From: a virus
Strand: one strand, 5' to 3'
DNA: 38,758 nucleotides
IMG/VR virus record: IMGVR_UViG_3300024346_000197
The notes below the pieces were generated by a model that saw nothing but the letters and a program-made list of their open reading frames with translations, was not told where the DNA came from and searched no databases. This document shows, piece after piece, positions 11,301 through 34,602 of this stretch. The position numbers and the translations under genes are program-made. Every line of letters starts with the position of its first letter. The first letter of the stretch is position 1.

Positions 11301-12717
11301 TGAATACACGAAACATCAAGAAGCCAAGAAGTTTTTGGAGCATGCGAATGAGGTGTTGTCTTTGCTTGGTGCTAAGACGAATGGTGACTTTGATTCTTTG
11401 GATTCGATTCTTCGTGCGCAGATTGCATCTGAACTTGAAGTGCATCTTGCTGTTGCCGGCATGAAGTCTGCACAACATGACAGGCTTATTCTTGAAGGTG
11501 TACAGAAAATGATTGACGACGGTGGAAGGCTGTTACCAGATGGACGTGTTCAAATGGCTGATGGTTTGATAGTTGATGGTGTTTCTGTTGATGCTGTTGT
11601 TGAAGCTGGTAAGGGCATTAGGGCTGGATGGGATTCTATTAGTAAGAACTTCCCTGAACTTTATGGTTCACCTGAGATGGTTGAACTATTGAATAATGCA
11701 GCACGTTTTGAAGACCCTGAGTTTATTAGGAAGATGGCTTACTACATTGGGCCGTACACAAAGTTGTTCAAAGCCTTTGCTGTTCTGTCACCTGGTTTCC
11801 ATGTGAGAAACGGATTGGGCAATGCAATTCAACTTGCATTGGCTGGTGTTGAAATGGACAATGCAATTCTTGGCACAAAGATGTTTAAGCGATGGATGGA
11901 CGCATCCAAACAGGGCAAGAGTTGGAACGAGTTTATTGTCACTCTTGAACCACAGATGCAGGAAATAATGAAGACTGCAAGGAATGGTTCTATTGGTTCT
12001 GGTGGTGGTATCTACACAGAAGTAATGAAAGAAGCTTCTGGCAATAGGATTATGGATTGGTGGTTGATTAGGAAGAACTATTCCTTTGGACAGGCATCCG
12101 ACAATTACAGCCGATTTGTATTGTCTTTTGACTCTGCAATGAAAGGCAATGACGTGTTCATGGCAGCAGCACGAGTGAAGCGTTTTTATTTTGACTATGA
12201 AGACCTGAGTACTGTTGACAAATTCATGAAGCAAATCATGCCGTTCTGGTTGTTCTATTCACGCAACTTGCATACGCAGATAACGAACATGTGGTTGAAC
12301 CCACGCCCATACCGTATTTATTACAACATTAAAAACAACATTGCGGATAGGGAAACTCCGAATCCACCATTTGTTGAGGAGATGGGTGGATTTAGATTGC
12401 CATTTGGCGATGGCTTGTATGCCATGCCAGATTTTGGATTTACACGTGTTAATAAAGAACTTTCAGATTTAGCCAATCCGATAAGAATGGTACCTAGATT
12501 AAATCCTTTGTTTGTTGTTCCATTTGAACAGTTGACCGGACGTGACTCTTACAGTGGTACTAAGTTTACTGATGCTAATGACAGGTTGTTGAATGCTTTG
12601 ACAAGCATTGCACCACCTGCACAGCAATTTGACAAATTGATTACAAACGATAACCCAATGTCACAGCTCAACGCTTGGCTTGGTTATCTTGGTTCGCCAG
12701 TAAGAAAATACAACTAA
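5314..12717 (+). CDS. Giant virion-associated protein (2467 aa); putative internal/ejection protein
   Basis: Single uninterrupted 7.4 kb ORF. GTG at 5314 overlaps the upstream gene by 11 nt. The central part has long coiled-coil-like stretches. The C-terminal ~450 aa look globular (FHVRNGLGNAIQLALAG, RFYFDYEDLSTVDKFMKQIMPFWLFYSRN). It occupies the T7 gp15/gp16 position. I recognised no enzymatic motif. Confidence 0.75.
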   Translation: MVSKNQDSNEVLNALKQITASKAPKRQSVLPDIGRPIVRESSLTENLLKQLDSNPYRKPGTFFPKTLESSDNSKLENALTNAKNASSILGTLGNIMNVADIPKRAVISSLRETIDALDGNEETKASFSDWKEQVGDREYGFGKAFPMKGWAGRAMGLTGDLLFDPVNWATFGGSIPFKAVIKMSAREFIELSAKELAEGSTRKFIVKKTLENGDVLVKARSVLGKNVIGRDGRAALGRFTKKRLTFLRDAGEDGYKHLTDDMITRISGEVYADGKRVFFRNPNLPAGFAESIGVRGPGIYYFGSRFKVPGTTGIGRLGEDVLTELRLYVSTTKAGKAIRTATTGQGVGRIMRMGVKGVDKKTGEDIILNALVRARVNLADGSLLSPAEINQAMAVIEMHDFARIRRVVHVESESNNMSPLADELAAVENGYRYLDQVPTAEIQARAASGDTGSVVALKVRQYMDYLWSRANARSKAVGGTEIPYNDGYFPHMETAQAKQDRLLKGNDAFDAMLYGDDAMDPLARNQIPKSDRRTVFNERQLEEGDKWFGVTLRQADLTADRLNEIARASGRVNFDMFETNTTKVLAEYLQQFSDQMSWYDALEYGAKEFPDLLSFGEMLMKISPTYSNEIMKKRPNQMFRALETAIRKHSLFLDNSLTSVRNELISKHGSFEAALIAMREGTMSATELDSLLKALNEQMAVAEGLDAQYKQMLADISAQFENRDGISGFSLFLEGTRSVQASQKFEELKALVKEFSGFSYVDMTPERLQQLEPLFRAYEQYTEAVGVLSRDIEFSSLVSDVFPGLNNLGEYGAAQQYDIFAKIIDELGEPSMSTTARQLSSLWGPKNPIEFRTLGVSREAIDAVSRMTIDDINSFLDEVRLMDVDQLAVLGDGVKSGTGRGNNFALWLQALIVENEKLASGGFESSFLDDAKTFLDIKVRKRMNPYDFNAVDTTKADGTFNQWKSAVKRLLVGDVEGFEDLLIQQKALSTIYKWQEMYAPFGIQIGDDVIDEIVQREARDYALIALRNGDEKRFADLTSAKFGRNGGTGPLGTHRLIERQRQIFEDMMDLHGFDVRTGTFADGKPLPVATRKLPGSQSPRVESVIKNLSEEQQRQWARVSQENKQVLDYVDSRIEFIKNARNNMQSGSELQTIWDSISERFVNSLKSIESGELFNIVDDSASGGKILFDDLITEMYEVAKQIGDAARLSQDPIAARTIEDNWNSFIDEMANQIERTRFILQNYSPESQMYKQQKFQIRMIISNKMLQEFDATKTIFFNGFNSNLDSMSDEMLRLVRMRRQASNVLNNPEDYFRTGPGRFDTSNVDESILAAPRSLDEGGRVVDTRTGELVPPTEQELDVIIANYRNSDQMPIARSAENNANRAHSLVHVDLSKMPADQMPGGVVFTPDEWDNIVLGGALETGSPKFDAFLTALRSQRGGDVSDDRLIDGFVDFVLTNFRDTDAVVKNSKVIAYRRKQIRLNWKKSEHYSWLENYRTYEQRKFAKAFAANASDEVRQLDAASNAITYVREASKEAVVDVPAFTVSRRQLLIKAFDNFIETMEKVQKTIPKKETRVAFIEEATPSIDKSFNPGAKEVADEFDDSVETIINDALGIGEGTSKSPKVSQVESRTFLGRDGEGMEVADFEALPITGLSGSDEVLLLRNRENARVVDSFLKGSNVEKSTQQLEREVRILETLINNKMDTPWTTGKSKRVLVRLRKAEIAKREGFVVTPAGSRLKGNWTYGPLPFDDFESAIEYAKRIVREEKLVLAKPKDVERLKKFLEQAAYRTKYNMTPELQTAVNIVSGPSETQIDKMLFSVNSFIDNALKKRNGKYNRSLAVTPEDVDYYMSKLREPDFDYEVAELAELDDLRNAINLKKLPETEMVSVPKDMSPVATDVPMDAAAKLQAELELLGKSSTTEVERLGKDVAEARSVADRLQAKYDLGVASNEAVDEDQVKFLQNRIEVLQKLVDDSQIEVRAGRGKQATLDYSDGISFEYTKHQEAKKFLEHANEVLSLLGAKTNGDFDSLDSILRAQIASELEVHLAVAGMKSAQHDRLILEGVQKMIDDGGRLLPDGRVQMADGLIVDGVSVDAVVEAGKGIRAGWDSISKNFPELYGSPEMVELLNNAARFEDPEFIRKMAYYIGPYTKLFKAFAVLSPGFHVRNGLGNAIQLALAGVEMDNAILGTKMFKRWMDASKQGKSWNEFIVTLEPQMQEIMKTARNGSIGSGGGIYTEVMKEASGNRIMDWWLIRKNYSFGQASDNYSRFVLSFDSAMKGNDVFMAAARVKRFYFDYEDLSTVDKFMKQIMPFWLFYSRNLHTQITNMWLNPRPYRIYYNIKNNIADRETPNPPFVEEMGGFRLPFGDGLYAMPDFGFTRVNKELSDLANPIRMVPRLNPLFVVPFEQLTGRDSYSGTKFTDANDRLLNALTSIAPPAQQFDKLITNDNPMSQLNAWLGYLGSPVRKYN

Positions 12718-12726
12718 GGAGAAACA

Positions 12727-13251
12727 ATGACAAAGAAGCGAGTTTACACAGGTAATAAGGATGGGGCAGCCAAAGGCTTGCGTCCTGGCATGAAAGTATT
12801 TATCAACGAGGTAATCAAGTTATCTAACGGTGCCCTCTGGAATAATGGTGACTGGGGCGTTCGCCCAATGCGTGGAAAAGAGTCCCTTTCTGTTCATGCA
12901 ACAGGACGAGCAGTTGACCTGTCGTATCGACACATGCCACCAAGTAAGGGCATTAAGAATGGTCGCATTGAAGCATTGCGAGTTTTGAAGATTGTGGAAG
13001 CCAACGCTGAAGCGTTAGGCGTTGAAGCAATTTTTGATTACATTGTCAAGCCGCACGGACGTGCATGGATGTGCGACCGCAATGCATGGTTGAACTACAA
13101 GAAGGAAACTATTCACGGTGGGGGTTCGGGGGACTGGCTTCACTTTGAGATTTCGCCAGAAATGGCTGATGACCCGGCAAAAATGAAGGAAGCGTTTGCG
13201 AACTTGGTGATTCCTGCGGAGAGTCCGAAGAGTCCTGAAGAGCAACTCTAG
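12727..13251 (+). CDS. Zn D,D- or L,D-peptidase, M15 (VanY/ply-type) family; endolysin or virion-associated cell-wall hydrolase
   Basis: RBS aaggaga precedes the ATG. SVHATGRAVDL matches the S-x-H-x-x-G-x-A-x-D metal-binding motif and GDWLHFE matches the second His motif of M15 peptidases. 174 aa. Last gene of the late arm. Confidence 0.8.
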   Translation: MTKKRVYTGNKDGAAKGLRPGMKVFINEVIKLSNGALWNNGDWGVRPMRGKESLSVHATGRAVDLSYRHMPPSKGIKNGRIEALRVLKIVEANAEALGVEAIFDYIVKPHGRAWMCDRNAWLNYKKETIHGGGSGDWLHFEISPEMADDPAKMKEAFANLVIPAESPKSPEEQL

Positions 13252-18451: not shown

Positions 18452-18904
18452 TTATTCCTCGCCCCAAGGGCCCCATCCGTTGTCATACCTGGCATCGGCA
18501 TAGTTATAGATTGCTAAGGCAGACCTGAGGTTGATTGATGGGTCTTGAAGGTCTGTCAGACGCTCCAGGATGCCCCTAGACGAGAGATACTTGACCCAGA
18601 AGCCATTTACTTGCATGAGCCCCCAAGAGCCTTTATTTGGGTCATCTTTGTTGATTGCATAGAGACTGCATTTTGATTCTCGCCACATGATTTTGTCTAA
18701 TTTGTCTAGCAGGCTACGTGACCAGCCTTCCTGAACGGCAAGATGCCACCATTGAGGACATTTGGCGTCCACAGGTGGGCGAACCATGGCTCCTTCTGGG
18801 GCTCGCAGGTTTCTGACTAGCAAAGACCCTTCCGAAGTGGGGTTTGTTGGGGGCAAAACACCCCCAAGAATTAGGCTAAGTGTGACTGTTATTTGTGCTA
18901 TCAA
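18452..18904 (-). CDS. Lytic transglycosylase (SLT domain) with an N-terminal hydrophobic segment (150 aa)
   Basis: MWRESKCSLYAIN carries the catalytic Glu-Ser. GLMQVNGFW and ALAIYNYA follow the SLT pattern. The N-terminus MIAQITVTLSLILGGVLPP is hydrophobic. TTG start overlaps the upstream stop. Confidence 0.75.
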   Translation of the reverse strand: MIAQITVTLSLILGGVLPPTNPTSEGSLLVRNLRAPEGAMVRPPVDAKCPQWWHLAVQEGWSRSLLDKLDKIMWRESKCSLYAINKDDPNKGSWGLMQVNGFWVKYLSSRGILERLTDLQDPSINLRSALAIYNYADARYDNGWGPWGEE

Positions 18905-19125: not shown

Positions 19126-19646
19126 GGTAGTTGCATAACTGTTTTTGCTGTCGACATTGCCTTCACAAAGTCGTAGAATATTTCAAGTGCTGTCTTAAGA
19201 GAGCCTTGAGCGTTACCTGTGTCGTAGGTGATTTCTTCTTTGCCCTTGAAATGGATTGCTGAACCCATTTTGCCGTTATGTAACAAAGTTACAAGGCGTA
19301 CACGCACACGTTCCGGATGTTGTGATGGTGCTACATCATCATCATAATCTCCATCTTTGTCGATTGGTGCAGCCCAACCGCATGTGCTGACTGCAAAACT
19401 TTTGAATCCAGAATCAACAAGTGCTGCCACATTGCCCATGTCAGCGAGCATCTCATAAATGTCGCTGTCTTCTGCCACAACTTTGCACCATGGGATTTCA
19501 CCGTGGATGTAGTCGAACCCGAACAATGTTGCTTTTGGTAATTGGAATTCATCATCGTGTAGTTCCACGATTTTTTCTGTGATAGCACGGTCAATTTCTT
19601 TGATTGTTGTCTCAAACTTTTCCGTGTAGTTGATTGCCTTTGTCAT
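19122..19646 (-). CDS. Hypothetical protein (174 aa)
   Basis: Overlap-coupled at both ends. Globular acidic sequence. No recognised motif. Confidence 0.65.
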   Translation of the reverse strand: MTKAINYTEKFETTIKEIDRAITEKIVELHDDEFQLPKATLFGFDYIHGEIPWCKVVAEDSDIYEMLADMGNVAALVDSGFKSFAVSTCGWAAPIDKDGDYDDDVAPSQHPERVRVRLVTLLHNGKMGSAIHFKGKEEITYDTGNAQGSLKTALEIFYDFVKAMSTAKTVMQLP

Positions 19647-19909
19647 GCTGGTATCTCCTGTTTCTGTTTCTGTTTGGATTTTCTGTATTGTGTTTTGCCG
19701 TCATACAGGGTCACTCCCCCCCATATGCCGAATGATTGCGTTGCAACTCCATAGTCAAAACATTTTTTTTTGATTGAACATGTTTTGCATATTTCTTTTG
19801 CTTTTTTTGTTGTGACGATTGCCTGTTTGTTCATAGGCCATACAGGAAACCACCACTTGGTTGGTTGGTTTTTACAGTTTGCTTTACTGAAGTCTGGTGC
19901 TTTATGCAT
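19643..19909 (-). CDS. whiB: WhiB-family Fe-S transcription factor (88 aa)
   Basis: Four Cys (C...CKTCSIKKKC = C-x2-C-x5-C) followed by FGIWGG, the WhiB G-[VI]-W-G-G turn, and a basic C-terminal tail. Confidence 0.8.
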   Translation of the reverse strand: MHKAPDFSKANCKNQPTKWWFPVWPMNKQAIVTTKKAKEICKTCSIKKKCFDYGVATQSFGIWGGVTLYDGKTQYRKSKQKQKQEIPA

Positions 19910-20692: not shown

Positions 20693-21673
20693 TTAGTAGT
20701 AACTTGGGTGTGTGTTTGTACCGGTTGGTGTTTCCCAACCGTGTTCTATCAATGTTGTATCTGATTCAATCCATAGTGCGTCCCAACAATCGCAAGCATC
20801 CATTGCACATAGCAAGCATGCACTACATGTTGCACAGTTTGTACGAAGCTCGTCATTGGGAACAATGTCTTGGATTCCACATCTTTGACAATCAACCATG
20901 TTGCGTGTTGCGTCATAGACGGTTGTGTACAACTCTGCTGCTTCGTAGCATTCCTCGGCGCTCAATGCGCCGATTGGAATCAATGCTTCATCGTCATCGT
21001 CATACATTGTTGTTGCTTTGTCCCACGATGATGCATACGACGTTGTTTTGTAACCGTAGTCCCAATCATTCCAACCACCGCCGTACATACCTGTGTGTCG
21101 CCTGTATGTAATTGCTGCTGGTTTGTATGACTCATTTGACCACCACACATCAGAATCCCAGTGACCATCTTTTTCGTTGAGGATGTACCAGTCATACTTT
21201 GCATCGTCATTGACGGTTAGGAACGCAAGCTTCGAACCCTTAGCCCACGTTGCCATCTGCTGGAAGTATTCACCATCATCAAGAGACGAGATGCCACCGA
21301 TTGCCGGCATAATGTCTTCAGCGAACACTCTGGTATCAGAGCGTGTCTCATTCTTTTCCATTTTGACAGGCAAGATACCGTTGTGGCCGAGCACGGTGTT
21401 TTTGTCTTCACCAAGTAGGAAAGGATGACAGTTGTCAACTGTGTTTGTACCGTGAGTAGTCCAACGGAAGTGGAAGATTGCAGGCCCTTGCATCTTTTTG
21501 CGAGCGTCCACAAACTTGTTTGCAACTTCTTCAAAGTCCATACTGCGAACAATGTGAAGTTTTTTACCTGTTGAAATAGCAAAGCCGAACCCATCAGGGT
21601 TGGCTTTAGCGGCGACACGGAACCTGTCCATGTCTGGTGTTACGTAGTCTGGTATCAGTGTGAGTAAACACAT
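20693..21673 (-). CDS. Class-II (Ntn) glutamine amidotransferase-like protein with a C-terminal Cys-cluster extension (326 aa)
   Basis: The N-terminus MC supplies the Cys nucleophile. HFRWTTHG, NCHPF and GHNGIL follow the GATase class-II (YafJ/GATase_4-like) pattern. The C-terminal ~130 aa are W/Y/G/D-rich and then carry CQRC...CATCSACLLCAMDACDC. Confidence 0.75.
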   Translation of the reverse strand: MCLLTLIPDYVTPDMDRFRVAAKANPDGFGFAISTGKKLHIVRSMDFEEVANKFVDARKKMQGPAIFHFRWTTHGTNTVDNCHPFLLGEDKNTVLGHNGILPVKMEKNETRSDTRVFAEDIMPAIGGISSLDDGEYFQQMATWAKGSKLAFLTVNDDAKYDWYILNEKDGHWDSDVWWSNESYKPAAITYRRHTGMYGGGWNDWDYGYKTTSYASSWDKATTMYDDDDEALIPIGALSAEECYEAAELYTTVYDATRNMVDCQRCGIQDIVPNDELRTNCATCSACLLCAMDACDCWDALWIESDTTLIEHGWETPTGTNTHPSYY

Positions 21674-21674
21674 A

Positions 21675-22691
21675 TTAAACTAACTCCCTTTCTTTTACTC
21701 TTTCTGAAATTCTTTGGTTGAGGATGTGGAACTTTGAGCGTTCGATTGTCCATTTGTTGAATGAATCGAACATCAATCCACCTGATACGGCTTCTTTTAT
21801 GTTCACATCTTTTGTGTACTCAAATAGTGCTTGAGCAAATTGAATTGCTGCTAGCACCGTGTCTGTGTTGAGTGATGGACGGAAGAACCGTAACTCAATT
21901 GTTTTTGTGTTTTGCAAATTGACCGCCATGAACCGTTCCGAGTTCATCACATGTCCCTTTGCCATTTGAGTCAAGGTGTTGCCCTTGATTGTCTTTTCCT
22001 CGTAGTGGTCGTATCGAGCATTGAGGAACATGTTCATGTCAAATCGTGCATAACGAGTTGACTCACGACCAGCGAATTGCACAAGTGGAATGCGATTTTT
22101 ATAGATGAAGTAAATGAATTTCATCAAGTGTGAATCGTTGATGAATGCATTGCGTGACAAGTGCAAATGCAATCCACATGTGCTTGCATTCCAGGCATGA
22201 AATCCACGAGACTTCAAACCAGAAATTGCTTTCCAGTTGAAATCTTGCATGAAGAATTCCATTGTGCCGGGATGTGAAACAATTTCGAAGCCATGGTCAA
22301 GTGAACCATCAGATTTGAGGTAAACAGTTTCCATTCCGCTGATTACAGTGTTTGCTTTTACAAACCTTGCACCGTTCATTCTGTCACCAGAAACACATTC
22401 TGTTTCCAATTCGACTCCGATATACAACTCAGGGCTCATTTTGTCCCCGTTGTATTTTGTTACTGAACGATATGCCGAACGGAAGTCACCGTTTTCATGC
22501 ATGAAGATTGGACGTTTCTTGAATGCCCACGGAAGGATGAGACCTTCATCATTGTCATCACTGTTGTGGTTTGTGTATGATTCATAGCAATCTTCACCAC
22601 ACCACCAATCGCCACCGATATCGACCATGTCCTCGATTTCGTATGTTTCTTCACAGTTTGGGCATGTGATTTCTTCATTATTTCTTGGCAC
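21675..22691 (-). CDS. Amidoligase (glutamine-synthetase-fold COOH-NH2 ligase, Amidoligase_2-like) with an N-terminal zinc ribbon (338 aa)
   Basis: Motifs are YIGVELETE, DGSLDHGFEIVSHP and CGLHLHLSR. The N-terminus has CPNC...CGEDC. GTG start is preceded by aaaggagaa. Confidence 0.7.
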   Translation of the reverse strand: MPRNNEEITCPNCEETYEIEDMVDIGGDWWCGEDCYESYTNHNSDDNDEGLILPWAFKKRPIFMHENGDFRSAYRSVTKYNGDKMSPELYIGVELETECVSGDRMNGARFVKANTVISGMETVYLKSDGSLDHGFEIVSHPGTMEFFMQDFNWKAISGLKSRGFHAWNASTCGLHLHLSRNAFINDSHLMKFIYFIYKNRIPLVQFAGRESTRYARFDMNMFLNARYDHYEEKTIKGNTLTQMAKGHVMNSERFMAVNLQNTKTIELRFFRPSLNTDTVLAAIQFAQALFEYTKDVNIKEAVSGGLMFDSFNKWTIERSKFHILNQRISERVKERELV

Positions 22692-26614: not shown

Positions 26615-27049
26615 ATGAAGCATAATGAAGAACTAACGCTTACACAGCAACAACAGGTTTATGTTGAGTGGTTGTGCACTGCTCCAAGCGAGCGTTTGCC
26701 GGCCACAAAGAAGGCAATGGCATTAGAACTTGGTGTTGATATTACAACACTACGTCGCTGGGAAAAGAAAGAAGTGTTTCGCAATGTCTGGAAGGACACT
26801 GTGGACGAAGTACAAGGTTCGCCAGAGCGAACTCAGCGCTTGCTGGACACTTTGTACAGCAAAGCGCTTGATGGTGATACTAAGTCTGCACAGTTGTATT
26901 TGCAGGCTACGAACCGTATGGCTCCGCCTACGGTAACGGTTCAGACTAATAAGAAAGCAGCAGAACTTTCTGATGCTGAGTTGGATTCTTTGATTGCTGC
27001 GGTAGCGGAGCGAGAGAAGGCTCAACGTACACACTTGAAGGCATTGTGA
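26615..27049 (+). CDS. HTH protein, terminase small-subunit-like (144 aa)
   Basis: First gene of the late arm. TKKAMALELGVDITTLRRWEKKEVF is an HTH. DGDTKSAQLYLQATN and the coiled C-terminus are typical of TerS-like proteins. It is not adjacent to TerL. Confidence 0.5.
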   Translation: MKHNEELTLTQQQQVYVEWLCTAPSERLPATKKAMALELGVDITTLRRWEKKEVFRNVWKDTVDEVQGSPERTQRLLDTLYSKALDGDTKSAQLYLQATNRMAPPTVTVQTNKKAAELSDAELDSLIAAVAEREKAQRTHLKAL

Positions 27050-27051
27050 AT

Positions 27052-27186
27052 ATGGTCGAATGTCCTGAGTGTGGCGAGGAGTATCCACCTGTGGCAACAC
27101 ATTGGATTTGTCCAGCGTGCGGGATTGATGACAGGGCACAGCCAAAGATGGCGGTGTTTGAATTGAGGGATTATGGCGACAACTAA
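27052..27186 (+). CDS. Zinc-ribbon mini-protein (44 aa)
   Basis: Under 60 aa. MVECPECGEEYPPVATHWICPACGIDD has C-x2-C ... C-x2-C. It overlaps the next start. Confidence 0.55.
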   Translation: MVECPECGEEYPPVATHWICPACGIDDRAQPKMAVFELRDYGDN

Positions 27187-27478
27187 CGATGCGATGTTTA
27201 CGGCCCTTTCGGGCTCGTATCCATCTGCCGGTCAGACCCTTGGCGACTTGTTGTATGCGTTCTGGTCTGAGAAGGGTTTGCAGTATCGTGGCACGCTAGA
27301 GCGTGATTGGTATATTAGCGAGGGTGCTGTTGGCACAACTCTTGGTGATTTGGCTAACGATTACTTTTCAAACCTGTATGACGTTGTGATTTTTAATTAC
27401 TCTGAACCAGATGAGTGGTTGGAGTTGCAAGTGTTTGACCGTTTTGACACGGTTGAACAGCAAGTATTTTTTATTTAG
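27173..27478 (+). CDS. Hypothetical protein (101 aa)
   Basis: Internal duplicated motif G-x-T-L-G-D-L (AGQTLGDLLYAFW and VGTTLGDLANDYF). Confidence 0.6.
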   Translation: MATTNDAMFTALSGSYPSAGQTLGDLLYAFWSEKGLQYRGTLERDWYISEGAVGTTLGDLANDYFSNLYDVVIFNYSEPDEWLELQVFDRFDTVEQQVFFI

Positions 27479-27500
27479 GTAACGATTCAGGAGAACATAT

Positions 27501-27881
27501 ATGGCAACTTTCACAAAAATAGCATTCAACCCTGCTGGCGGTACTCCTGCTGGAACAGGTTTGGGTATTCCGGTCACAGCAACAACAGTTGGCACCGTGG
27601 GAACAGTTATTCACACTGCTTCGACAACACCTGCAACTATTGACGAAGTGTGGATTTACGCACAGAACTACGACACTACAGACCGTAAACTCACCATTCA
27701 GTGGGGTGCGGCAACTGCTGGAACACACGAAATTGAATACACCGTTAAAGCGGAAAGTGGTTTGTATCTAGTTTGTCCGGGTCTTATTATGCAGGGCAAC
27801 GCTACAGCAAAGGTTATTTCTGCTATTGCCGCAACTGCAACTGCGATTGTTTTGTACGGGTACGTTAACCGTATTGCCTAA
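27501..27881 (+). CDS. Ala/Thr/Gly-rich beta protein (126 aa), possible virion surface protein
   Basis: RBS aggaga. Beta-sandwich-like composition. No motif. Confidence 0.6.
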   Translation: MATFTKIAFNPAGGTPAGTGLGIPVTATTVGTVGTVIHTASTTPATIDEVWIYAQNYDTTDRKLTIQWGAATAGTHEIEYTVKAESGLYLVCPGLIMQGNATAKVISAIAATATAIVLYGYVNRIA

Positions 27882-27891
27882 GGGGTACTAA

Positions 27892-28440
27892 GTGCCTTCA
27901 TATCTAAGAACAACAGCAGGTGGTAAAGCCATCAGTGGTGGTTCATTGGCTCCACGCACGAATAGATACAGTGCTGGTTCGGTTGCAACAAATGCTCTTG
28001 GAGTTCTAACTCTTGACCTTCCTATTTTGGCAACAGCAACAGCAGCAAATGCTGGTTTTACTGTTGTTATTAGCAACTATGATGCAACAGTTACATACAC
28101 GTTGTCAACAACTTCTGGTACTGTTGCCAGGTCAACAAATACAATTACACAAAGTGGTTTGGCTGCTAGCGCTTCTGCAACAGTTACTGTAACTGCTAGT
28201 AAAACTGGATTTACATCTGCTGCACCAGTAACAAGGTCTGGAACCGCAGCCGCTTCTTGTTCTTGTGTGTTCCAATACTCGCAAACAGAAGGTGGAAACT
28301 GTTGTTGTACTGGAATGTGCGGAGCAGCAAACCAAGTATGCTGTTACGACATTTATGTTTATGCACCAGCATCATCACCTTGCACTGGAAGTTGCAGTAA
28401 CAGCGTTGGTGGATGGTACGCTTGTGACGGAACCTGTTAA
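27892..28440 (+). CDS. Ala/Thr/Ser-rich protein with an extremely Cys-rich C-terminal module (182 aa)
   Basis: GTG start 6 nt after aagggg. There are 12 Cys in the last 60 aa: SCSC...NCCCTGMCGAANQVCCYD...PCTGSCSN...YACDGTC. Confidence 0.7.
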   Translation: MPSYLRTTAGGKAISGGSLAPRTNRYSAGSVATNALGVLTLDLPILATATAANAGFTVVISNYDATVTYTLSTTSGTVARSTNTITQSGLAASASATVTVTASKTGFTSAAPVTRSGTAAASCSCVFQYSQTEGGNCCCTGMCGAANQVCCYDIYVYAPASSPCTGSCSNSVGGWYACDGTC

Positions 28441-28459
28441 ATAAAATTCAAGGAGAATT

Positions 28460-28717
28460 ATGTCAAACACTGAAGAATATGTAAGTCCAGATGGATACCC
28501 ACAATCACCGTTTAATAGAAATGCACCTGTAAACTGGTATGCTTTTGTAATTGATGGTGAAGTTGTTTGGATGCAAACATGTCAAGTTTCTTTGGAGTTC
28601 TTGAACATTGTATTGAAATCTGACCCAAAGATTATTCCTGTGCCAGATTCTTTGGCTGGTGAAGTTCTTTCTGGTTGGACTTGGGATGGATTTGAGTTCC
28701 ATGAGCCAACAGCCTAA
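28460..28717 (+). CDS. Hypothetical protein (85 aa)
   Basis: RBS aaggaga. Globular sequence. No motif. Confidence 0.65.
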   Translation: MSNTEEYVSPDGYPQSPFNRNAPVNWYAFVIDGEVVWMQTCQVSLEFLNIVLKSDPKIIPVPDSLAGEVLSGWTWDGFEFHEPTA

Positions 28718-28946
28718 AGAACTAACACCGTTTCAAATACATAAACAACGCTTTGGTGCTGCCAAACCGTGGCACGCAATACAGCGTGAACACAGGGTTG
28801 ACACTGAAGTATCTATGAGTAGATATTCTATTTGTGAGGGTTGTCCTTCGTTTTTGAATATTACAAAACAGTGTAAAGAGTGTGGTTGTTTTATGAAAAT
28901 TAAAACAAAAATTGATACCGCTGTTTGCCCAATTGGGAAATGGTAA
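28701..28946 (+). CDS. Cys-rich zinc-binding-like small protein (81 aa from ATG 28701; the ORF opens at GTG 28659)
   Basis: ICEGCPSFLNITKQCKECGCFMKIKTKIDTAVCPIGKW has C-x2-C, C-x2-C-x-C and C-P-x-G-K-W. Confidence 0.6.
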   Translation: MSQQPKELTPFQIHKQRFGAAKPWHAIQREHRVDTEVSMSRYSICEGCPSFLNITKQCKECGCFMKIKTKIDTAVCPIGKW

Positions 28947-30268
28947 AATCTCGCTGGATTATTTTTGCTCCAGTAGCTTTATTAGCATTGTGGTCTACCG
29001 TAGCAAAAGCAGACGGACTTGGAGATTGGACAGCATCTCAGTCTTGTGTCAACTCAGGTTCTGTTGAGGTTGTAGAGAACTCGATTCTTATTACTGGTCC
29101 AAATTATGGTGGTTGTTCTGGCGCAGCACATTGGACAAAAATTGAAACCACAATTCCAAAAGGTGTAAATAGTATTTCATTTAATTGGTCTTACTGGACT
29201 AATGACGGTGCTTACTATGACCCACCACAATATGCAGTCAATGATGTTTATACACAATTGACACAACAAAATACCGCCTCGGGTTCATTGACTGTGCCGG
29301 TAGTTGCTGGGGATATATTTACATTTAGGCAATATTCAATTGACACGTGTTGCGGACCGGGTCACTTACAGATAAGCAATCTTTCACTATGGGAATTTAC
29401 AACAACATCCACAACCCTAACGACGACGACAACTACTACTATTGCCCCGTCAACGACTGTCCCTGTCACGAGCACTACTACTACGACGCTTCCAGAAACC
29501 TCAAGTACGAGTACAACGACGAGCACGACGTCTACTTCAACTACGACAACCACGACGACTACAACATCGTCAACGACGAGTACTACAACAACAAGTTCAA
29601 CTCCTTCAGCACCCGTTGAAATTTACGTTCCCGAAGAGCCTGAAGAAACAACGACAAGCACCACAGAGCCAGTAGAAGAGGAACCCATTCCAGAGGAGAC
29701 GCTTCCAGAAGAAACAACCACAACAGTTGAAGAAGAGACCACAACAACTGAGGAAGTGACCACAACATCTGAAGCACCTGAAGAAACTACCACAACGGTA
29801 GAACCAGATTTGGAGCCATTGGCTGAAGAAGAAATAGATGCCCTCATTGCTGAAGCCACAACTGTGGAAGAACTTCAGGAAGCACTAGAGGAGTTAACCC
29901 CTGAACAGGTTGAGCAGGTTGTTGACCAGATTCTGGCACAGGAAGAACCACCCACCCAAGAGCAGGCTGTCGCTTTGGCGACTAGCCCAGAGGTGCTGTC
30001 AGTTGTCACGCCACAGCAGGCGGTTGAAATCTTTGAGTCTTTGGATGTGGCCGAACTGAGTATCGAGGAAAAAGATGCGGTCACAGAAGCTGTCCAGTCT
30101 GCATCCGTAGAGGTGCGACAGGCGTTTGAAGAAACCATTGACATATTCTCCGACGACTTCGGTGACTACGTTCCTTTGGGTTCTGCTGTGCCAGTAAATA
30201 CTCGCCGTACCCTGATTGCCGTAGCGGCTGGTGCTACAGCCATTGCTGTGTCTTCACGAAAGCAGTAA
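28940..30268 (+). CDS. Exported/anchored protein (442 aa): signal peptide, beta-sandwich-like domain, Thr/Ser mucin-like stalk, acidic Glu/Pro/Thr repeats, C-terminal hydrophobic anchor
   Basis: ATG 28940 overlaps the upstream stop (ATGGTAA). MVKSRWIIFAPVALLALWSTVAKA-DG is signal-peptide-like. 29395..29615 encodes an almost pure T/S run. This is followed by EETTTT-type repeats. The C-terminus is RRTLIAVAAGATAIAVSSRKQ. Confidence 0.75.
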   Translation: MVKSRWIIFAPVALLALWSTVAKADGLGDWTASQSCVNSGSVEVVENSILITGPNYGGCSGAAHWTKIETTIPKGVNSISFNWSYWTNDGAYYDPPQYAVNDVYTQLTQQNTASGSLTVPVVAGDIFTFRQYSIDTCCGPGHLQISNLSLWEFTTTSTTLTTTTTTTIAPSTTVPVTSTTTTTLPETSSTSTTTSTTSTSTTTTTTTTTSSTTSTTTTSSTPSAPVEIYVPEEPEETTTSTTEPVEEEPIPEETLPEETTTTVEEETTTTEEVTTTSEAPEETTTTVEPDLEPLAEEEIDALIAEATTVEELQEALEELTPEQVEQVVDQILAQEEPPTQEQAVALATSPEVLSVVTPQQAVEIFESLDVAELSIEEKDAVTEAVQSASVEVRQAFEETIDIFSDDFGDYVPLGSAVPVNTRRTLIAVAAGATAIAVSSRKQ

Positions 30269-30285: not shown

Positions 30286-30453
30286 GTGAAGAAACTCTTA
30301 TCCGAAATCCATGCTTTGACTTGGACACTTGCAGGTACTGGTATGGTGCTTATTACGTTGTCTGGGCAAACGAAGGTTTTGGGTTGGGGAATCACCGTAA
30401 TAGCCGTGATAATCCATTTACTCGGCGTAATGTTCAAGGAGAACAATGAATAA
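30286..30453 (+). CDS. Two-TM mini membrane protein (55 aa), holin-like candidate
   Basis: Under 60 aa. GTG start with a weak RBS. LTWTLAGTGMVLITLSG and VLGWGITVIAVIIHLLGVMF are two hydrophobic helices. The stop overlaps the next ATG. Confidence 0.45.
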   Translation: MKKLLSEIHALTWTLAGTGMVLITLSGQTKVLGWGITVIAVIIHLLGVMFKENNE

Positions 30454-30715
30454 GGCAAAAGATATTGCAGGCAGAATTGTTGCACTTTTTCTCACCAACG
30501 CCCTCGGCGTTGTGACTGGTGCTGCAATTATTGCTCCAGACCTAGAAGTATGGAAGTCGGCTCTTATCGCTGGCGCAGTATCCATTTTCAAGGTTGCAGA
30601 ACAACTTGCAAAGGCAAGCATTGATGGTGTTCTTACCAAAGATGAAATTGATGCAGCATTTGGTGCAAGTCCTAAAAAGATTGCAGCCAAGAAGGTAGCC
30701 GCTAAGAAGGCATAA
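30446..30715 (+). CDS. Membrane protein resembling r1t-type actinophage holins (89 aa)
   Basis: RBS aaggaga. GRIVALFLTNALGVVTGAAIIAP and VWKSALIAGAVSIFKVA are two amphipathic/hydrophobic helices, followed by a Lys/Ala-rich tail (KKIAAKKVAAKKA). Confidence 0.5.
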   Translation: MNKAKDIAGRIVALFLTNALGVVTGAAIIAPDLEVWKSALIAGAVSIFKVAEQLAKASIDGVLTKDEIDAAFGASPKKIAAKKVAAKKA

Positions 30716-32301
30716 TGGAACTCACTGACCTTCTCAATGAGAAGGAGTGGAGGAAATGCAAGGGTAGTGAAGGTGCGACCACAGATGAACTTGTGGCTGC
30801 ATTTTCACACTTTTGTGCTACCCATTGGATGATTCGACACCCTGAGCGGGGTCGTATCAAGTTTGTCTTGCGTGAAGCTCAAGAGGAAACTGTAAGAGTC
30901 TGGATTGACTCTCGCTACAGTATTGTTCTGAAAGCACGACAGATTGGGTTCTCTACTCTGGCTGCTGCATTTACATTCTGGGAAACATTCTTTTGGGCTG
31001 ACCGATTTACGGTCATGCTTTCACGTACAGAACGTGAAGCATCCAAGTTATTACAGAAGACCAAGTACGGCTACAAGATGATGCCTGCATGGATGCGCAT
31101 GCGTGGACCAGACTTGCTTTCAGACAACCAGTTGAAGATGGTGTTTGCTAATGACTCCTCTATTGAGTCTTTGCCATCTGGCAATGACCCTGCTCGTGGT
31201 GAGTCTGTGTATCGAGTAATCATTGACGAAATGGCGTTCTTGCCCAACGCCGAAGAAGCATGGGCATCTATTGAACCTATTGCCGACGTTGGTGGTCGTG
31301 TTATTTGTTTGAGCACAGCCAATGGTGAGGGTAATATCTTTCATCAACTGTGGGTTGGTTCACAAACTGGCAACAACCGATTTACTGGTGTCTTTTTTCC
31401 GTGGTCTGCTGGAGACCGTGATGAAGACTGGTACGAGGCCAAGAAGCGTGACCTTCCAGACTGGCAGTTAGCACAGGAATATCCAGATAATGCTGAAGAA
31501 GCTTTTATCCGTTCTGGTCGTCCTGTATTTGACCTGGAATCCTTAAGAGATATTGAACCAGTAGAACCAGACCGTGGTTATTTAAAAAACCAAATGGGCA
31601 GGAATAACTACACATTTATCAATGATGGTGGAGCTTTAGCAATATATGAGTTTCCAGATATTGGGGAAACATATGTTATTGGCGCTGACGTTGCAGAAGG
31701 TCTAGGCCACGGTGACTATTCCTCAGCACATGTTATTTCTGCAAACACTGGATTGGTGGTTGCCCACTGGCACGGACATGTGGACGCAGATTTGTTTGGC
31801 GAGGAAATACTTCATGCAATTGGGTTTTTTTACAATTACGCATTGGTCGGGATTGAATCCAACAACCACGGTCTTACAACCATTAAGGGTCTACAAAGAA
31901 CTGGATACAAGAACATTTACCGTTCTAGGAAGTTGGGTCAAAGAAACCCAACAATCACCGAGACGATGGGTTGGAGAACGACTTCGGTCTCCAAGCCATT
32001 GGCGATTGACGAACTAAATGCCTCGATAAGAGACCAGGCACTCTGGCTCTACGACTACAACACAATTGCAGAATTAAGAACATTTGTTCGTGAAGCAAAC
32101 GGTAAGATGCACGGTTCACCGCATGATGACCGTGTTATGTCTTTAGCAATTACCAACCAGATGTTGAAATACGTTTGGCTTCCTGAATATAGGCATGATG
32201 CATCTCCGGTAAAGAACACTTTGGGTTGGTGGGAAAAGTTCATAATGAAGCCAGAAGTTGAAAAAGAAATGCACATTGGTGCATTTAATTCCAGAGAGTA
32301 A
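30715..32301 (+). CDS. terL: Terminase large subunit (528 aa)
   Basis: The Walker A-like motif is LKARQIGFSTLAAA, Walker B is YRVIIDEMAF and the coupling motif is LSTANGEGN. The C-terminal RNaseH-like nuclease acidic residues are VIGADVAEG, GIESNNHG and SPHDDRVMSLA. Confidence 0.9.
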   Translation: MELTDLLNEKEWRKCKGSEGATTDELVAAFSHFCATHWMIRHPERGRIKFVLREAQEETVRVWIDSRYSIVLKARQIGFSTLAAAFTFWETFFWADRFTVMLSRTEREASKLLQKTKYGYKMMPAWMRMRGPDLLSDNQLKMVFANDSSIESLPSGNDPARGESVYRVIIDEMAFLPNAEEAWASIEPIADVGGRVICLSTANGEGNIFHQLWVGSQTGNNRFTGVFFPWSAGDRDEDWYEAKKRDLPDWQLAQEYPDNAEEAFIRSGRPVFDLESLRDIEPVEPDRGYLKNQMGRNNYTFINDGGALAIYEFPDIGETYVIGADVAEGLGHGDYSSAHVISANTGLVVAHWHGHVDADLFGEEILHAIGFFYNYALVGIESNNHGLTTIKGLQRTGYKNIYRSRKLGQRNPTITETMGWRTTSVSKPLAIDELNASIRDQALWLYDYNTIAELRTFVREANGKMHGSPHDDRVMSLAITNQMLKYVWLPEYRHDASPVKNTLGWWEKFIMKPEVEKEMHIGAFNSRE

Positions 32302-32548: not shown

Positions 32549-32749
32549 ATGGAGATGGTCTGGGTTCCAATTATTGTCGCAATCATCTCAGGACCGCTCG
32601 TTGTGGTATTACAAAAACTTAGGAAAGAAAACACCAATCAACATGCTGAAGGACAAATCCTTCTTCGCATGGTTGGCACAAAAGTTGACAAAATAGCTAG
32701 CAAGCTTGACAACCATATTGGTTGGCATGAAGGTAAGAAGGAAGACTAA
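32549..32749 (+). CDS. Single-TM small membrane protein (66 aa)
   Basis: MEMVWVPIIVAIISGPLVVVLQKL is an N-terminal TM segment, followed by a charged helical tail ending in HIGWHEGKKED. Confidence 0.6.
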   Translation: MEMVWVPIIVAIISGPLVVVLQKLRKENTNQHAEGQILLRMVGTKVDKIASKLDNHIGWHEGKKED

Positions 32750-34602
32750 TGGCACGAACTTCTAATCAGGAACTCATTACCAAATACCGTGGCAAGATAG
32801 AGCAATCACGACGTTGGCGTCGTGAAGAACGATACGACGACCTTTGGGGTCGCATGGTTGACATGTATCGTGGCAAACACTACAAGACACAAATGCCAGA
32901 AGACCGTTTGCTTGTCAACATGGCTTTTGCGACAATTAACGTTATTGCACCAAGCGTTTCTGTTAACTATCCAAAGATTGTTGTTAATGCAAAGAATGTC
33001 GAAGATGCACCAAAAGCGGTAATCACAGAAGAGATTGTGAACTATTGGTGGAGGCATTTTGAGTGCCAACGTGAGTTTCGTCGTTCAGTAAAAGACATGC
33101 TTATCTGCGGACATGGATGGTTGAAAACTGGTTATCGTTTTGTCGAAAAAGGTGTTGAAGATTATGACACTGCAGACGAAATGGCTACTGCTGAATCAAT
33201 AACGGAATCTGAACTTATTATTACAGAAGACCGACCATTTGTTGAGCGTATTTCACCATTTGACGTTTTTGTAGATGCAGATGCAACATCAATGTCTGAT
33301 GTTCGCTGGATTGCTCAACGCATTCGTCGCCCTTTGAAAGATGTGAAAAAGGACAAGCGTTATAACTCTGCTGCTCGAAACGAAGCATCACCATCACACT
33401 ATTCAAAGTGGAGTGTTGATGAATGGCGTGGAAGTTTGCGACCACGACGTGGGGATAACCCAGATGATTCATATGTTGAAATTTGGGAATACTACGACAT
33501 TGACCGTGACACTATTTCGGTATTCTGTGACGGTGGAGACAAGTTCTTGATTGCTCCAACCAAGATTCCATTTGCATTTGGTCATCCATTTGTAATGTTG
33601 CGAAACTATGACATTCCAGACCATTTCTACCCAATGGGTGAATTAGAGGCAATTGAACCATTGCAAATGGAATTGAACCAAACTCGTACACAAATGATGA
33701 ATCATCGCAAGCGATTCTCACGCAAGTGGCTTTACCGTGAATCTTCTTTTGATGCAGATGGTCGTGCAGCTCTAGAATCCGATGAAGACAACGTACTTGT
33801 ACCTGTTATTTCAGAAGACGGATTGAGCAACGCAGTTGTTCCAATGCCGGCAGTTATTAGTCCACCAGAGTTTTACAACCAGTCAGAATTGATTTCAAAC
33901 GATATCAACCAGATATCTGGTGTTTCCGAATACATGCGTGGTGCTTTGCCAGAAATTAGGCGAACAGCAACCGAGGCTGGAATTGTTCAGGACGCAGCAA
34001 ATGCTCGTGCATCAGACAAGCTTGCAGCAATCGAGCGTACTATTGCCGATTGTGGTCGAAGATTGGTGATGCTGGCACAGCAATATATGACTGGTGAACA
34101 AGCAATTCGTGTTGTTGGGGCAGGGGAAAAGCGAGCTTGGGTTCGCTTTGACCGTGACTACATTCAAGGTGAATTTGATTTTGAGGTAGAAGGTGGTTCT
34201 ACTCAACCAACAAACGAATCTTTCCGTCGTCAATCTGCAATGCAGATTATGGATGCAATGGCTCCGTTTATTCAGAGTGGAATTATTAATATCCAGAAAT
34301 TGGCAGAATACGTTTTGCAATACGGTTTTGGTGTAAAGCAACCATCAATGTTTATTGCTGCCCCTGAACCTCCTCCAGCGCCTGAGCCACCTGCTCCGCC
34401 GATGGAGCAAATGCCACCACAAGGCATGCCACCACAAGGTCTTCCACCAGAAGCAATGATGCAAGGGGGGCCACCTATGGGTGGACCACCACCAGGATTA
34501 CCTCCTGAACTTGCACAACTTCCGCCTGAGTTGTTAATGCAACTCATGCAAGGTGGAGGAATGCAAGGTGGAATGCCGCCAGGTATGCCACCAGGCATGT
34601 AA
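32749..34602 (+). CDS. Portal protein (617 aa) with a Pro/Gly/Met/Gln-rich C-terminal tail
   Basis: Size and position fit: after TerL and before scaffold and capsid. TAATG coupling. The last ~80 aa are low complexity: PPAPEPPAPPMEQMPPQGMPPQGLPPEAMMQGGPPMGGPPPGLPPE...GGMQGGMPPGMPPGM. Confidence 0.8.
   Translation: MARTSNQELITKYRGKIEQSRRWRREERYDDLWGRMVDMYRGKHYKTQMPEDRLLVNMAFATINVIAPSVSVNYPKIVVNAKNVEDAPKAVITEEIVNYWWRHFECQREFRRSVKDMLICGHGWLKTGYRFVEKGVEDYDTADEMATAESITESELIITEDRPFVERISPFDVFVDADATSMSDVRWIAQRIRRPLKDVKKDKRYNSAARNEASPSHYSKWSVDEWRGSLRPRRGDNPDDSYVEIWEYYDIDRDTISVFCDGGDKFLIAPTKIPFAFGHPFVMLRNYDIPDHFYPMGELEAIEPLQMELNQTRTQMMNHRKRFSRKWLYRESSFDADGRAALESDEDNVLVPVISEDGLSNAVVPMPAVISPPEFYNQSELISNDINQISGVSEYMRGALPEIRRTATEAGIVQDAANARASDKLAAIERTIADCGRRLVMLAQQYMTGEQAIRVVGAGEKRAWVRFDRDYIQGEFDFEVEGGSTQPTNESFRRQSAMQIMDAMAPFIQSGIINIQKLAEYVLQYGFGVKQPSMFIAAPEPPPAPEPPAPPMEQMPPQGMPPQGLPPEAMMQGGPPMGGPPPGLPPELAQLPPELLMQLMQGGGMQGGMPPGMPPGM

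Follow-up and report, generated by a model that had tools for sequence, protein, structure and literature searches.

What purpose could a stalked, membrane-anchored protein with an apparent export signal serve in the late operon of a phage? The question is raised by a gene at positions 28940 to 30268 on the plus strand of IMG/VR virus record IMGVR_UViG_3300024346_000197, a stretch of 38,758 nucleotides (nt) that was analyzed as a whole and is here called the window. A first-pass annotation, made from the letters alone, had described the 442-residue product (hereafter the stalk protein) as a signal-peptide protein with a mucin-like stalk and a C-terminal anchor, and had listed superinfection exclusion, receptor masking, adhesion and a part in lysis as possible roles without choosing among them. 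Our computations gave an exported-type, membrane-anchored architecture with lectin-type heads, placed the protein in a phage-restricted family, paired it with a small two-transmembrane protein (tm2) to which it is fused in some relatives, and revealed synteny with a holin-like gene and with endolysins. The choice of role is thereby only narrowed: what is gained is a swappable lectin-type head on a fixed partner of lysis-cassette membrane genes, with lysis control, receptor masking and adhesion as the candidate roles. We tentatively prefer, at somewhat less than an even chance, the explanation that the stalk protein is the wall-glycan-binding arm of the lysis membrane machinery, which would tether, position or gate a holin-type complex relative to the wall, and that it is not a virion component.

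Layout of the stalk protein

The reading frame is open from the ATG at 28940 to the stop codon ending at 30268, exactly as first annotated, and hydropathy, composition and AlphaFold2 (AF2) modeling recovered each of the parts then named, i.e., the signal peptide, beta-sandwich domain, Thr/Ser stalk, acidic repeats, helical region and C-terminal anchor. These parts are arranged as follows.

28940..30268, plus strand: gene of the lectin-stalk-anchor protein, 442 amino acids (aa); open reading frame (ORF) and sequence, 57 complete orthologs, 589 family clusters
28940..29011, plus strand: Sec-type signal peptide, aa 1-24; predicted cleavage between AKA and D, no lipobox; hydropathy and conservation
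29012..29398, plus strand: head domain, aa 25-153; beta jelly-roll resembling a carbohydrate-binding module (CBM), 4 Cys
29399..29614, plus strand: Thr/Ser tract, aa 154-225; composition and in-frame tandem repeats
29615..29809, plus strand: acidic Glu/Pro/Thr repeat tract, aa 226-290; composition and 15- and 21-nt tandem repeats
29810..30169, plus strand: acidic helical-repeat module, aa 291-410; AF2, conserved in 45 close and 589 distant clusters
30170..30265, plus strand: juxtamembrane motif, hydrophobic helix and basic tail, aa 411-442; alignments and transmembrane (TM) statistics

Residues 1 to 24 (MVKSRWIIFAPVALLALWSTVAKA) comprise a basic n-region, a hydrophobic core and a cleavage site between AKA and D, and the N terminus, parsed by hydropathy as MVKSR-WIIFAPVALLALW-STVAKA before the D, has the makeup of a Sec (signal peptidase I) signal. 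Relatives were sampled from 80 IMG/VR loci, which yielded 57 complete orthologs; in all 57, the 12-aa hydropathy core of the signal peptide scores at least 2.49, and the peptide is retained where the head is swapped. No lipobox Cys lies near the cleavage site, and the predicted mature N terminus is DGLGD (DxLG[DE]W in most orthologs with a CBM-like head). The signal peptide and the anchor are thus predicted features, resting on hydropathy, on conservation and on natural fusions of consistent topology (see below).

Between the head and the helical module, Thr and Ser account for 59 of the 72 residues of the first tract, and the second (65 aa) contains 23 Asp/Glu, 23 Thr/Ser and 8 Pro. The underlying DNA carries tandem repeats with periods of 9, 15, 21 and 24 nt, every one a multiple of 3. 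The tract varies in length among relatives: the low-complexity linker spans 167 to 269 residues among the complete IMG/VR orthologs. In the window the stalk amounts to ~140 residues, which at 0.2 to 0.35 nm per residue would reach ~27 to 48 nm, enough to cross the wall. The stalk may be O-glycosylated; Pmt-type O-mannosylation of Sec substrates is established in actinobacteria.

All of the complete orthologs (57/57; 418 to 535 aa) keep the signal peptide and the stalk as well as the helical module, hydrophobic helix and basic tail, and a chance ORF is therefore excluded. When the full protein was scanned with Pfam, PHROG, NCBIfam and PADLOC, only noise was returned (SPX, PUF and TAC at E > 0.05), and PADLOC gave no match for it or for seven neighboring genes at E ≤ 0.1. 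The gene is truncated by the contig end in 22 of the 80 loci (e.g., L006, L015 and L020), and in the 36.9-kb NCBI contig UFOVP1549 the two halves of an ortholog stand as partial genes _62 and _1 at opposite ends (proteins P0004 and P0017). Since contig ends fall inside this gene, its low-complexity tract (29399-29809) is a breakpoint of metagenome assembly.

The head is an interchangeable lectin slot

A structure search of the head had been proposed with the first annotation. AF2, supplied with the ortholog alignment, modeled this region as a ten-strand beta jelly-roll (mean predicted local distance difference test [pLDDT], 79.9), and Foldseek matched it in the PDB to CBM61, 16, 4, 35, 6, 22 and 27 and to a MAM domain, with E values from 1e-6 to 1e-4. 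For CBM61, 16, 4, 35 and 6, the match probability was 1.00 at template-modeling scores of 0.35 to 0.5, with a query that included the signal peptide. Against BFVD, the best matches after the orthologs were CBM-like domains of phage tail fibers, neck-passage structures and host-specificity proteins. The window head has no Pfam match (PA14 included) and no sequence match in the PDB, and it falls into no CAZy or Pfam CBM family; its assignment to the CBM fold class, as a beta-sandwich or jelly-roll like those of solved CBMs, comes from AF2 and Foldseek. The head would bind a wall or surface glycan.

Database searches returned 9 relatives for the head versus 45 for the C-terminal 156 aa. In 7 of the 57 complete orthologs, a PA14-type head follows the common signal peptide; the head of L018, for example, scores 30.1 bits as PA14 against a cut-off of 24. 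A comparison of two loci illustrates the exchange: the DNA of L079 (PA14 head) and L071 (CBM-like head) is 87 to 92% identical in the two flanks and over 64 nt that encode signal peptide, and no nucleotide similarity is detectable across the head. Among 77 long representatives, Pfam identified PA14 in 19, SUEL lectin in 12, fn3 in 8, LCCL in 5, GLEYA in 3 and C-type lectin in 2, and further domains included beta-helix, RCC1-like, DUF285 and mannanase galactose-binding-like types. Even in close relatives of the window (L014 and L016), in which TerL is 98 to 99%, the portal 97% and tm2 100% identical, the head is merely 74% identical. These data indicated a fast-evolving slot at the head position, in which lectins are interchangeable. 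A search of the structural genes of the window found no paralog of the head.

The C-terminal module is conserved and phage restricted

The helical module (aa 291-410) contains 33 Asp/Glu residues, and the AF2 model of aa 287-442 (pLDDT, 83.8) shows eight short helices and then a long helix at the end. In the PDB, the helical module had no significant fold match (best E, 0.49), and its profile found nothing below E 0.015 among PDB sequences. Pfam hits to Glycos_trans_3N and GatB_Yqey were discarded as weak, generic helical-bundle similarity.

The C terminus (aa 411-442, YVPLGSAVPVNTRRTLIAVAAGATAIAVSSRKQ) opens with a juxtamembrane motif, Y-[VT]-P-x-G-S-x-[VI]-P-V-x-x-R-R-T-L-I-A, which is invariant or nearly so in the alignments and is followed by an uncharged stretch with a median of 15 aa, 67% of it Gly, Ala, Ser or Thr. 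The Arg-Arg pair, on the predicted outer side of the C-terminal helix (window 30170-30220, aa 411-428), occurs in all orthologs. Together, T/E-R-R-T-L-I-A and the Ala/Gly-rich stretch resemble the n- and h-regions of a Tat signal placed at the C terminus; a Tat signal was rejected because the motif is C-terminal in a chain with an N-terminal Sec signal. The sortase-type or other sorting motif that had been suggested is absent by sequence inspection and by NCBIfam models. The chain ends in YVPLGSAVPVNTRRT-LIAVAAGATAIAVSS-RKQ and its sole LPxT strings (LPETS and LPEET) lie inside the stalk, so that LPXTG anchoring was discounted, and the NCBIfam sorting-signal models (sortase, PEP-CTERM, GlyGly-CTERM, PGF-CTERM, etc.) matched neither the full protein nor its last 60 aa at E ≤ 10.

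More than 549 relatives of the C-terminal module were found in IMG/VR, and a profile search of 1.84 billion representative proteins retrieved 589 clusters (50% identity) at E ≤ 1e-3, 145 of them at E ≤ 1e-30. In two scans of 185,579 species genomes for the anchor module, the first found nothing and the second a single contig, the 21-kb JAURLY010000091.1 (L084), which is labeled "MAG: Gammaproteobacteria bacterium" (MAG, metagenome-assembled genome). This contig has 44% G+C, a WhiB-like ORF, a fusion of the stalk protein with tm2, a VanY endolysin and phage replication genes, and it is therefore probably a misbinned actinophage contig. A host origin of the anchor module was rejected on the same ground. 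Among 50,697 GenBank phages, tblastn with the C-terminal module retrieved only the metagenome-assembled Actinomycetia phage DSL-LC01, and no cultured-phage record. As judged from these searches, the anchor module is new, restricted to phages and without a known homolog.

The stalk protein is tied to tm2 and to lysis genes

The first-pass annotation had pointed to small holin-like membrane genes directly downstream (30286-30453 and 30446-30715), and both are there. A third small membrane protein is encoded farther on.

30286..30453, plus strand: tm2, a 55-aa two-TM protein of phrog_29041 with core motif AGTGMVLITLSG, directly downstream of the stalk protein gene
30446..30715, plus strand: hol89, an 89-aa holin-like protein whose gene overlaps the end of tm2 with its start and the start of TerL with its stop
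32549..32749, plus strand: 66-aa single-TM protein of phrog_32850 (tblastn E = 2.6e-6 to a 72-aa ORF of L034)

In all 80 loci, tm2 (53 to 56 aa, with the core AGTGMVLITLSG invariant) begins 4 to 30 nt past the stop of the stalk protein gene, and in 76 of them a hol89-type gene (~80 to 90 aa) comes next. The two proteins also occur as fusions. DSL-LC01 (L083, OQ999401.1) encodes a 944-aa protein in which an N-terminal signal, beta domains with poly-Thr linkers between them, an acidic linker, the helical module and the RR motif are followed by a Gly/Ser/acidic linker of ~80 aa and then by a segment homologous to tm2 (BLASTP E = 3e-10). Such a tm2 extension stands at the C terminus of at least 22 of the 148 best family representatives. 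The fused chain would run out - TM - cytoplasmic linker - TM - TM - in, which agrees with a type I orientation of the stalk protein and an N-in/C-in orientation of tm2. By this Rosetta-stone evidence, the sequences indicate that the stalk protein and tm2 act together. These data fit the earlier view of an exported, displayed protein that does not belong to the virion, given the predicted signal peptide and anchor in all complete orthologs and the out-in-out-in topology of the fusions.

The neighborhood of tm2 was examined for lysis functions. All members of the hol89 family belong to phrog_26427, and two of six diverse members also match phrog_443, "holin" (E = 1.5e-5). phrog_26427 is labeled "nuclease" in the category "DNA, RNA and nucleotide metabolism," and its members are ~80 aa long with two hydrophobic segments and adjoin endolysins; the label looks wrong and probably stems from a weak SAP-like C-terminal motif (PF18081, E = 0.007). 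Both tm2 and hol89 have the size and TM segments of holins. The stalk protein itself was excluded as a holin, with its 442 aa and large ectodomain.

In a second phage group (L031, L034 and L050) the gene order is tail fibers - stalk protein - tm2 - hol89 - VanY-type peptidase (PF02557, E = 2e-12) - 72-aa single-TM protein. In L084 it is the stalk protein::tm2 fusion - VanY plus PG_binding_1 endolysin - 90-aa single-TM protein - hol89-like gene, and this endolysin matches PHROG endolysin families. Homologs of the 66-aa single-TM protein of the window thus stand inside a lysis cassette, after the endolysin, in L031/L034 and in L084. The association was also recovered from the other side. With hol89 relatives of another clade, found by a single-sequence scan (35 loci on contigs of 8 to 154 kb), the C-terminal module lay within 8 kb in 30 loci and tm2 beside it in 29 of these 30, and three of the five loci lacking the module are cut at the expected position. 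In tblastn searches of the GenBank phages, the hol89 query found nothing and the tm2 query only DSL-LC01.

In DSL-LC01, an annotated VanY carboxypeptidase and a beta-mannosyltransferase lie ~9 kb and ~6 kb from the fusion gene (L083 4830-5651 and 7451-8332), and a hol89-like gene lies ~2.4 kb from it on the other strand. The VanY gene was termed an auxiliary metabolic gene in the publication of this phage; it is probably an endolysin instead.

Host and gene neighborhood

The window has a G+C content of ~44 to 45% and encodes a WhiB-like transcription factor (19643-19909, minus strand; PF02467, E = 1.5e-11) with CX..CXXC..C and GIWGG motifs. The WhiB gene marks the window as an actinophage genome with an actinobacterial host. 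Homologs come from freshwater metagenomes, and the host would be a low-GC freshwater actinobacterium. The window matches the size (38.9 to 39.1 kb) and G+C (44.7 to 44.8%) reported for cultured "Ca. Planktophila" phages, a resemblance that stops short of a shown sequence relationship (PMC10202952).

The late-arm position that had been assigned to the gene holds, as it lies in a rightward late operon between the two terminase genes.

26615-27049: TerS-like gene (small terminase subunit)
30715-32301: TerL (large terminase subunit)
32749-34602: portal

In the closest GenBank phage, whose TerL is 52% identical to that of the window, TerS directly abuts TerL; therefore, the ~3.6 kb between them in the window is an inserted block. 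The ATG at 28940 overlaps the stop of an upstream Cys-rich, DUF6171-like ORF (ATGgTAA), and the start/stop overlaps of this region with neighboring genes are those of a late operon. A scan of the plus strand for promoters and terminators showed none above background that would belong to the stalk protein gene alone.

The block between TerS and the stalk protein gene (window 27173-28946) is hypervariable, and close relatives are wholly different there (compare L017 3714-4990, L022 2946-4781 and L071/L079 3800-4940). Its products are fiber-like and include a conserved 126-aa phrog_30535 protein, Gly_rich_2-domain proteins and a tail-fiber-like 426-aa ORF; the member of the window is a 182-aa protein with a Cys-rich C terminus. 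In two lineages, a gene for a PAPS-type sulfotransferase (PF00685/PF13469) lies directly upstream of the stalk protein gene and overlaps its start (L031 4371-4916 and L080 2230-2865). Their head types differ (CBM-like and PA14), and the window has no such gene at that position.

Other genes of the window

The tail-gene block ends with a 174-aa ORF (12727-13251, plus strand) containing SVHATGRAVDL ... DWLHFE, which recalls LAS/M15-type peptidases. This ORF is a possible candidate for the endolysin of this phage; it has no Pfam or PHROG match and is not similar to the VanY endolysins found in related cassettes. In the early/replication arm, a small SLT-type transglycosylase is encoded at 18452-18904 on the minus strand (PF01464, E = 4.6e-6). 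Clear signal peptides at the N termini of its homologs in L031 (11669-12190) and L050 (10817-11293) point to an exported muralytic enzyme that is distinct from the endolysin of the cassette. The early arm also holds adjacent GATase_4-like and Amidoligase_2-like genes (20693-22691, minus strand), both weak matches, with GATase_4 below its curated cut-off; the pair recurs in phages. A single ORF of 2,467 aa (5314-12717, plus strand; 7.4 kb) has no Pfam match and is presumably a giant tail, internal-virion or host-recognition protein. Cultured Planktophila phages are reported to differ from one another by an 8-kb island with a few large hypothetical genes (PMC10202952).

Proposed role and alternatives

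The arrangement that we prefer, with the reserve stated at the outset, can be spelled out as follows. Expressed late, the stalk protein would be exported through Sec, its signal peptide would be cleaved, and it would stand in the host membrane as a type I protein, a "lectin on a stalk." Its head (a CBM-like jelly-roll in the window; PA14, SUEL, C-type lectin, GLEYA or LCCL in relatives) would bind glycan and be carried outward on ~140 to 270 residues of Thr/Ser-rich and acidic, probably extended and possibly glycosylated linker, long enough to span the actinobacterial wall. The acidic helical module and the short Ala/Gly-rich TM helix would hold the protein in the cytoplasmic membrane, and this anchor helix would cooperate with the 55-aa two-TM product of tm2. 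In freshwater low-GC actinophages, the two would constitute, with the holin-like gene, a conserved membrane module within the lysis cassette, through which the stalk protein may bear on the timing of lysis.

Several observations weigh against this proposal. The TM stretch is short and weakly hydrophobic and has two invariant Arg on its outer side, which is odd for a stable type I anchor. Gene adjacency is no proof of a role in lysis, and morons and receptor-blocking genes, such as lambda bor and T1/phi80 cor, also adjoin lysis or tail-fiber genes. The tie of hol89 to a holin family is weak (two of six members, E = 1.5e-5), its main PHROG being labeled "nuclease," and DSL-LC01 and several large phages have their holin-like gene 1 to 6 kb off, sometimes on the opposite strand. 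The window's own endolysin lies outside the cassette, and no homolog of the VanY endolysin from related cassettes was found in the window. Finally, it is not obvious why a lysis factor that spans the envelope should be needed in a monoderm host.

The alternatives share a common molecular picture with the lysis-arm proposal and differ from it mainly in purpose. One of them is a sensor of lysis timing, in which the surface lectin would report an extracellular glycan cue (neighbor cells, the state of the own wall or a superinfecting phage) and signal via the helical and juxtamembrane module to a two-TM protein that gates the holin, or in which a weak anchor, like that of a signal-anchor-release (SAR) protein, would be released on depolarization and deploy the lectin at lysis. 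Such a device, which we consider improbable, would correspond in a Gram-positive host to the lysis inhibition of T4, with sensor heads that can be exchanged. Somewhat unlikely is receptor masking, i.e., protection against readsorption or superinfection, in which the head would bind the phage's own wall-glycan receptor on the infected cell and on debris, spare late-arriving phages and progeny, and owe its link to lysis to late coexpression only. In function, it would then resemble Llp of T5 or Cor of T1/phi80. The head is of a lectin type known from phage receptor-binding proteins, no other part of the locus diverges or recombines as much and whole domains are swapped, the gene adjoins hypervariable fiber-like genes (Gly_rich_2, fn3 and tail-fiber-like ORFs), and late expression suits the protection of progeny. 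However, masking leaves unexplained the obligatory two-TM partner, the recurrent fusion and the highly conserved helical/juxtamembrane module; the head has no paralog among the structural genes of the window, and the protein lacks a lipobox and resembles neither known exclusion proteins nor PADLOC models. The head type is also independent of the adjacent upstream gene, as L017 (CBM) and L079 (PA14) share a 117-aa upstream ORF, and an abundant wall polymer would demand very many copies.

The order of parts also recalls fungal flocculins and adhesins and the serine-rich-repeat adhesins of Gram-positive bacteria, and late in infection the cell might become sticky to glycans of neighboring hosts or particles and raise the local host density at burst in dilute plankton. 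The heads include the flocculin types PA14 and GLEYA, besides SUEL and C-type lectins, and the stalk varies in length as it does in adhesins. This explanation, to which we give as little weight as to the sensor, is an argument by analogy; it leaves the tie to tm2 and to the holin-like gene unexplained, and the hosts are thought to be free-living, non-aggregating ultramicrobacteria. Still less probable is a C terminus that serves as a sorting or release signal, cut by a sortase- or exosortase-like enzyme or leaving the membrane as a SAR-like helix at holin-driven depolarization, and so freeing the lectin into the wall or medium. The tripartite build of invariant motif, short G/A/S/T-rich hydrophobic stretch and basic tail, next to holin-type genes, is suggestive of this, but neither LPXTG nor another known motif nor an NCBIfam sorting-domain match is present, the motif was found in no cellular protein, and in the fusions the helix precedes a cytoplasmic linker and two TM helices and so acts as an ordinary membrane-spanning segment. 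That the product is a fiber or decoration of the virion, or a chance or misannotated ORF, is hardly credible: although the gene is located among fiber-like and packaging genes and its head resembles the CBM-like domains of phage fibers, a cleavable signal peptide and a membrane anchor in 57 of 57 complete orthologs are incompatible with cytoplasmic assembly of tails and heads, and the protein is fused to a two-TM domain in many relatives and its ORF conserved across 589 clusters.

Few lake bacteria are as abundant as the freshwater low-GC Actinobacteria (acI and relatives), whose phages are mostly known from metagenomes. In these phages, the family described here is large, phage restricted and unannotated, and it combines three previously unlinked elements: interchangeable lectin heads, a flocculin-like stalk and an anchor that gene order and fusion tie to holin-type proteins. 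The kind of protein is familiar, as a surface lectin or adhesin and as a membrane protein of lysis cassettes; the combination is new. If the role in lysis is true, the family would be a new class of component in Gram-positive lysis cassettes, and if masking or cell gluing is true, it would be a new way for a lytic phage to remodel the surface of its host. In practical terms, the heads offer a catalogue of lectins that would be aimed at actinobacterial surface glycans, and these phage genomes are recurrently split at the Thr/Ser tract when metagenomes are assembled.

Comparison with known systems

No description of an equivalent module was found in the literature searched, and its nearest analogs share its architecture but no homology. 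In fungal flocculins and Epa adhesins (Flo1/Flo5 and Epa1), secretion signal, lectin head, long, wall-spanning Ser/Thr stalk of variable length and C-terminal anchor come in the same order. The stalk and anchor of the phage protein are nonhomologous to theirs, the anchor being a predicted TM helix with a two-TM partner instead of a GPI or wall linkage; moreover, the window head is CBM-like and not PA14, and the gene is phage encoded within a lysis cassette. The serine-rich-repeat and LPXTG adhesins of Gram-positive bacteria (GspB/Fap1 type and MSCRAMMs) likewise combine a signal peptide and a ligand-binding region with a long glycosylatable stalk of low complexity and a hydrophobic C terminus with a basic tail. 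In contrast to these, the stalk protein has YVPxGSxxPVxxRRTLIA in place of a sortase motif, no accessory Sec system, and an anchor module without cellular homologs.

Among phage proteins, Llp of T5, Cor of T1/phi80/N15 and Ltp of the S. thermophilus phage TP-J34 are also phage encoded and exported to the host envelope, their genes often adjoin those of receptor-binding proteins, and their proposed benefit is receptor blocking. They are small lipoproteins, whereas the stalk protein has 442 aa, no lipobox, a lectin-like head on a stalk with a TM segment, a tie to holin-like genes and no sequence similarity to them. The T4 holin T and antiholin RI, which represent holin accessory and antiholin systems with exoplasmic sensing domains, and the u-spanin T1 gp11 are, like the stalk protein, lysis-cassette membrane proteins with domains outside the cytoplasmic membrane. 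The u-spanin, which spans the envelope with an N-terminal secretion signal and a C-terminal TM segment, shares with it only the C-terminal TM segment and the position in the cassette. The stalk protein is nonhomologous to all of these, its host is monoderm, its predicted signal is of the signal peptidase I and not of the lipoprotein type, and its ectodomain would be a lectin on a disordered stalk and neither a coiled coil nor a small globular domain. In position, the module resembles the holin and spanin genes of T7-like phages, which are likewise found in the vicinity of the two terminase genes.

Finally, the CBMs of phage receptor-binding proteins (the lactococcal neck-passage structure, BppA and host-specificity CBMs) belong to the same beta-jelly-roll fold class as the window head and show a similar modular swapping. 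Those domains, however, reside in virion proteins that are assembled in the cytoplasm, whereas the head of the stalk protein would be exported behind a signal peptide and held at the membrane by its anchor.

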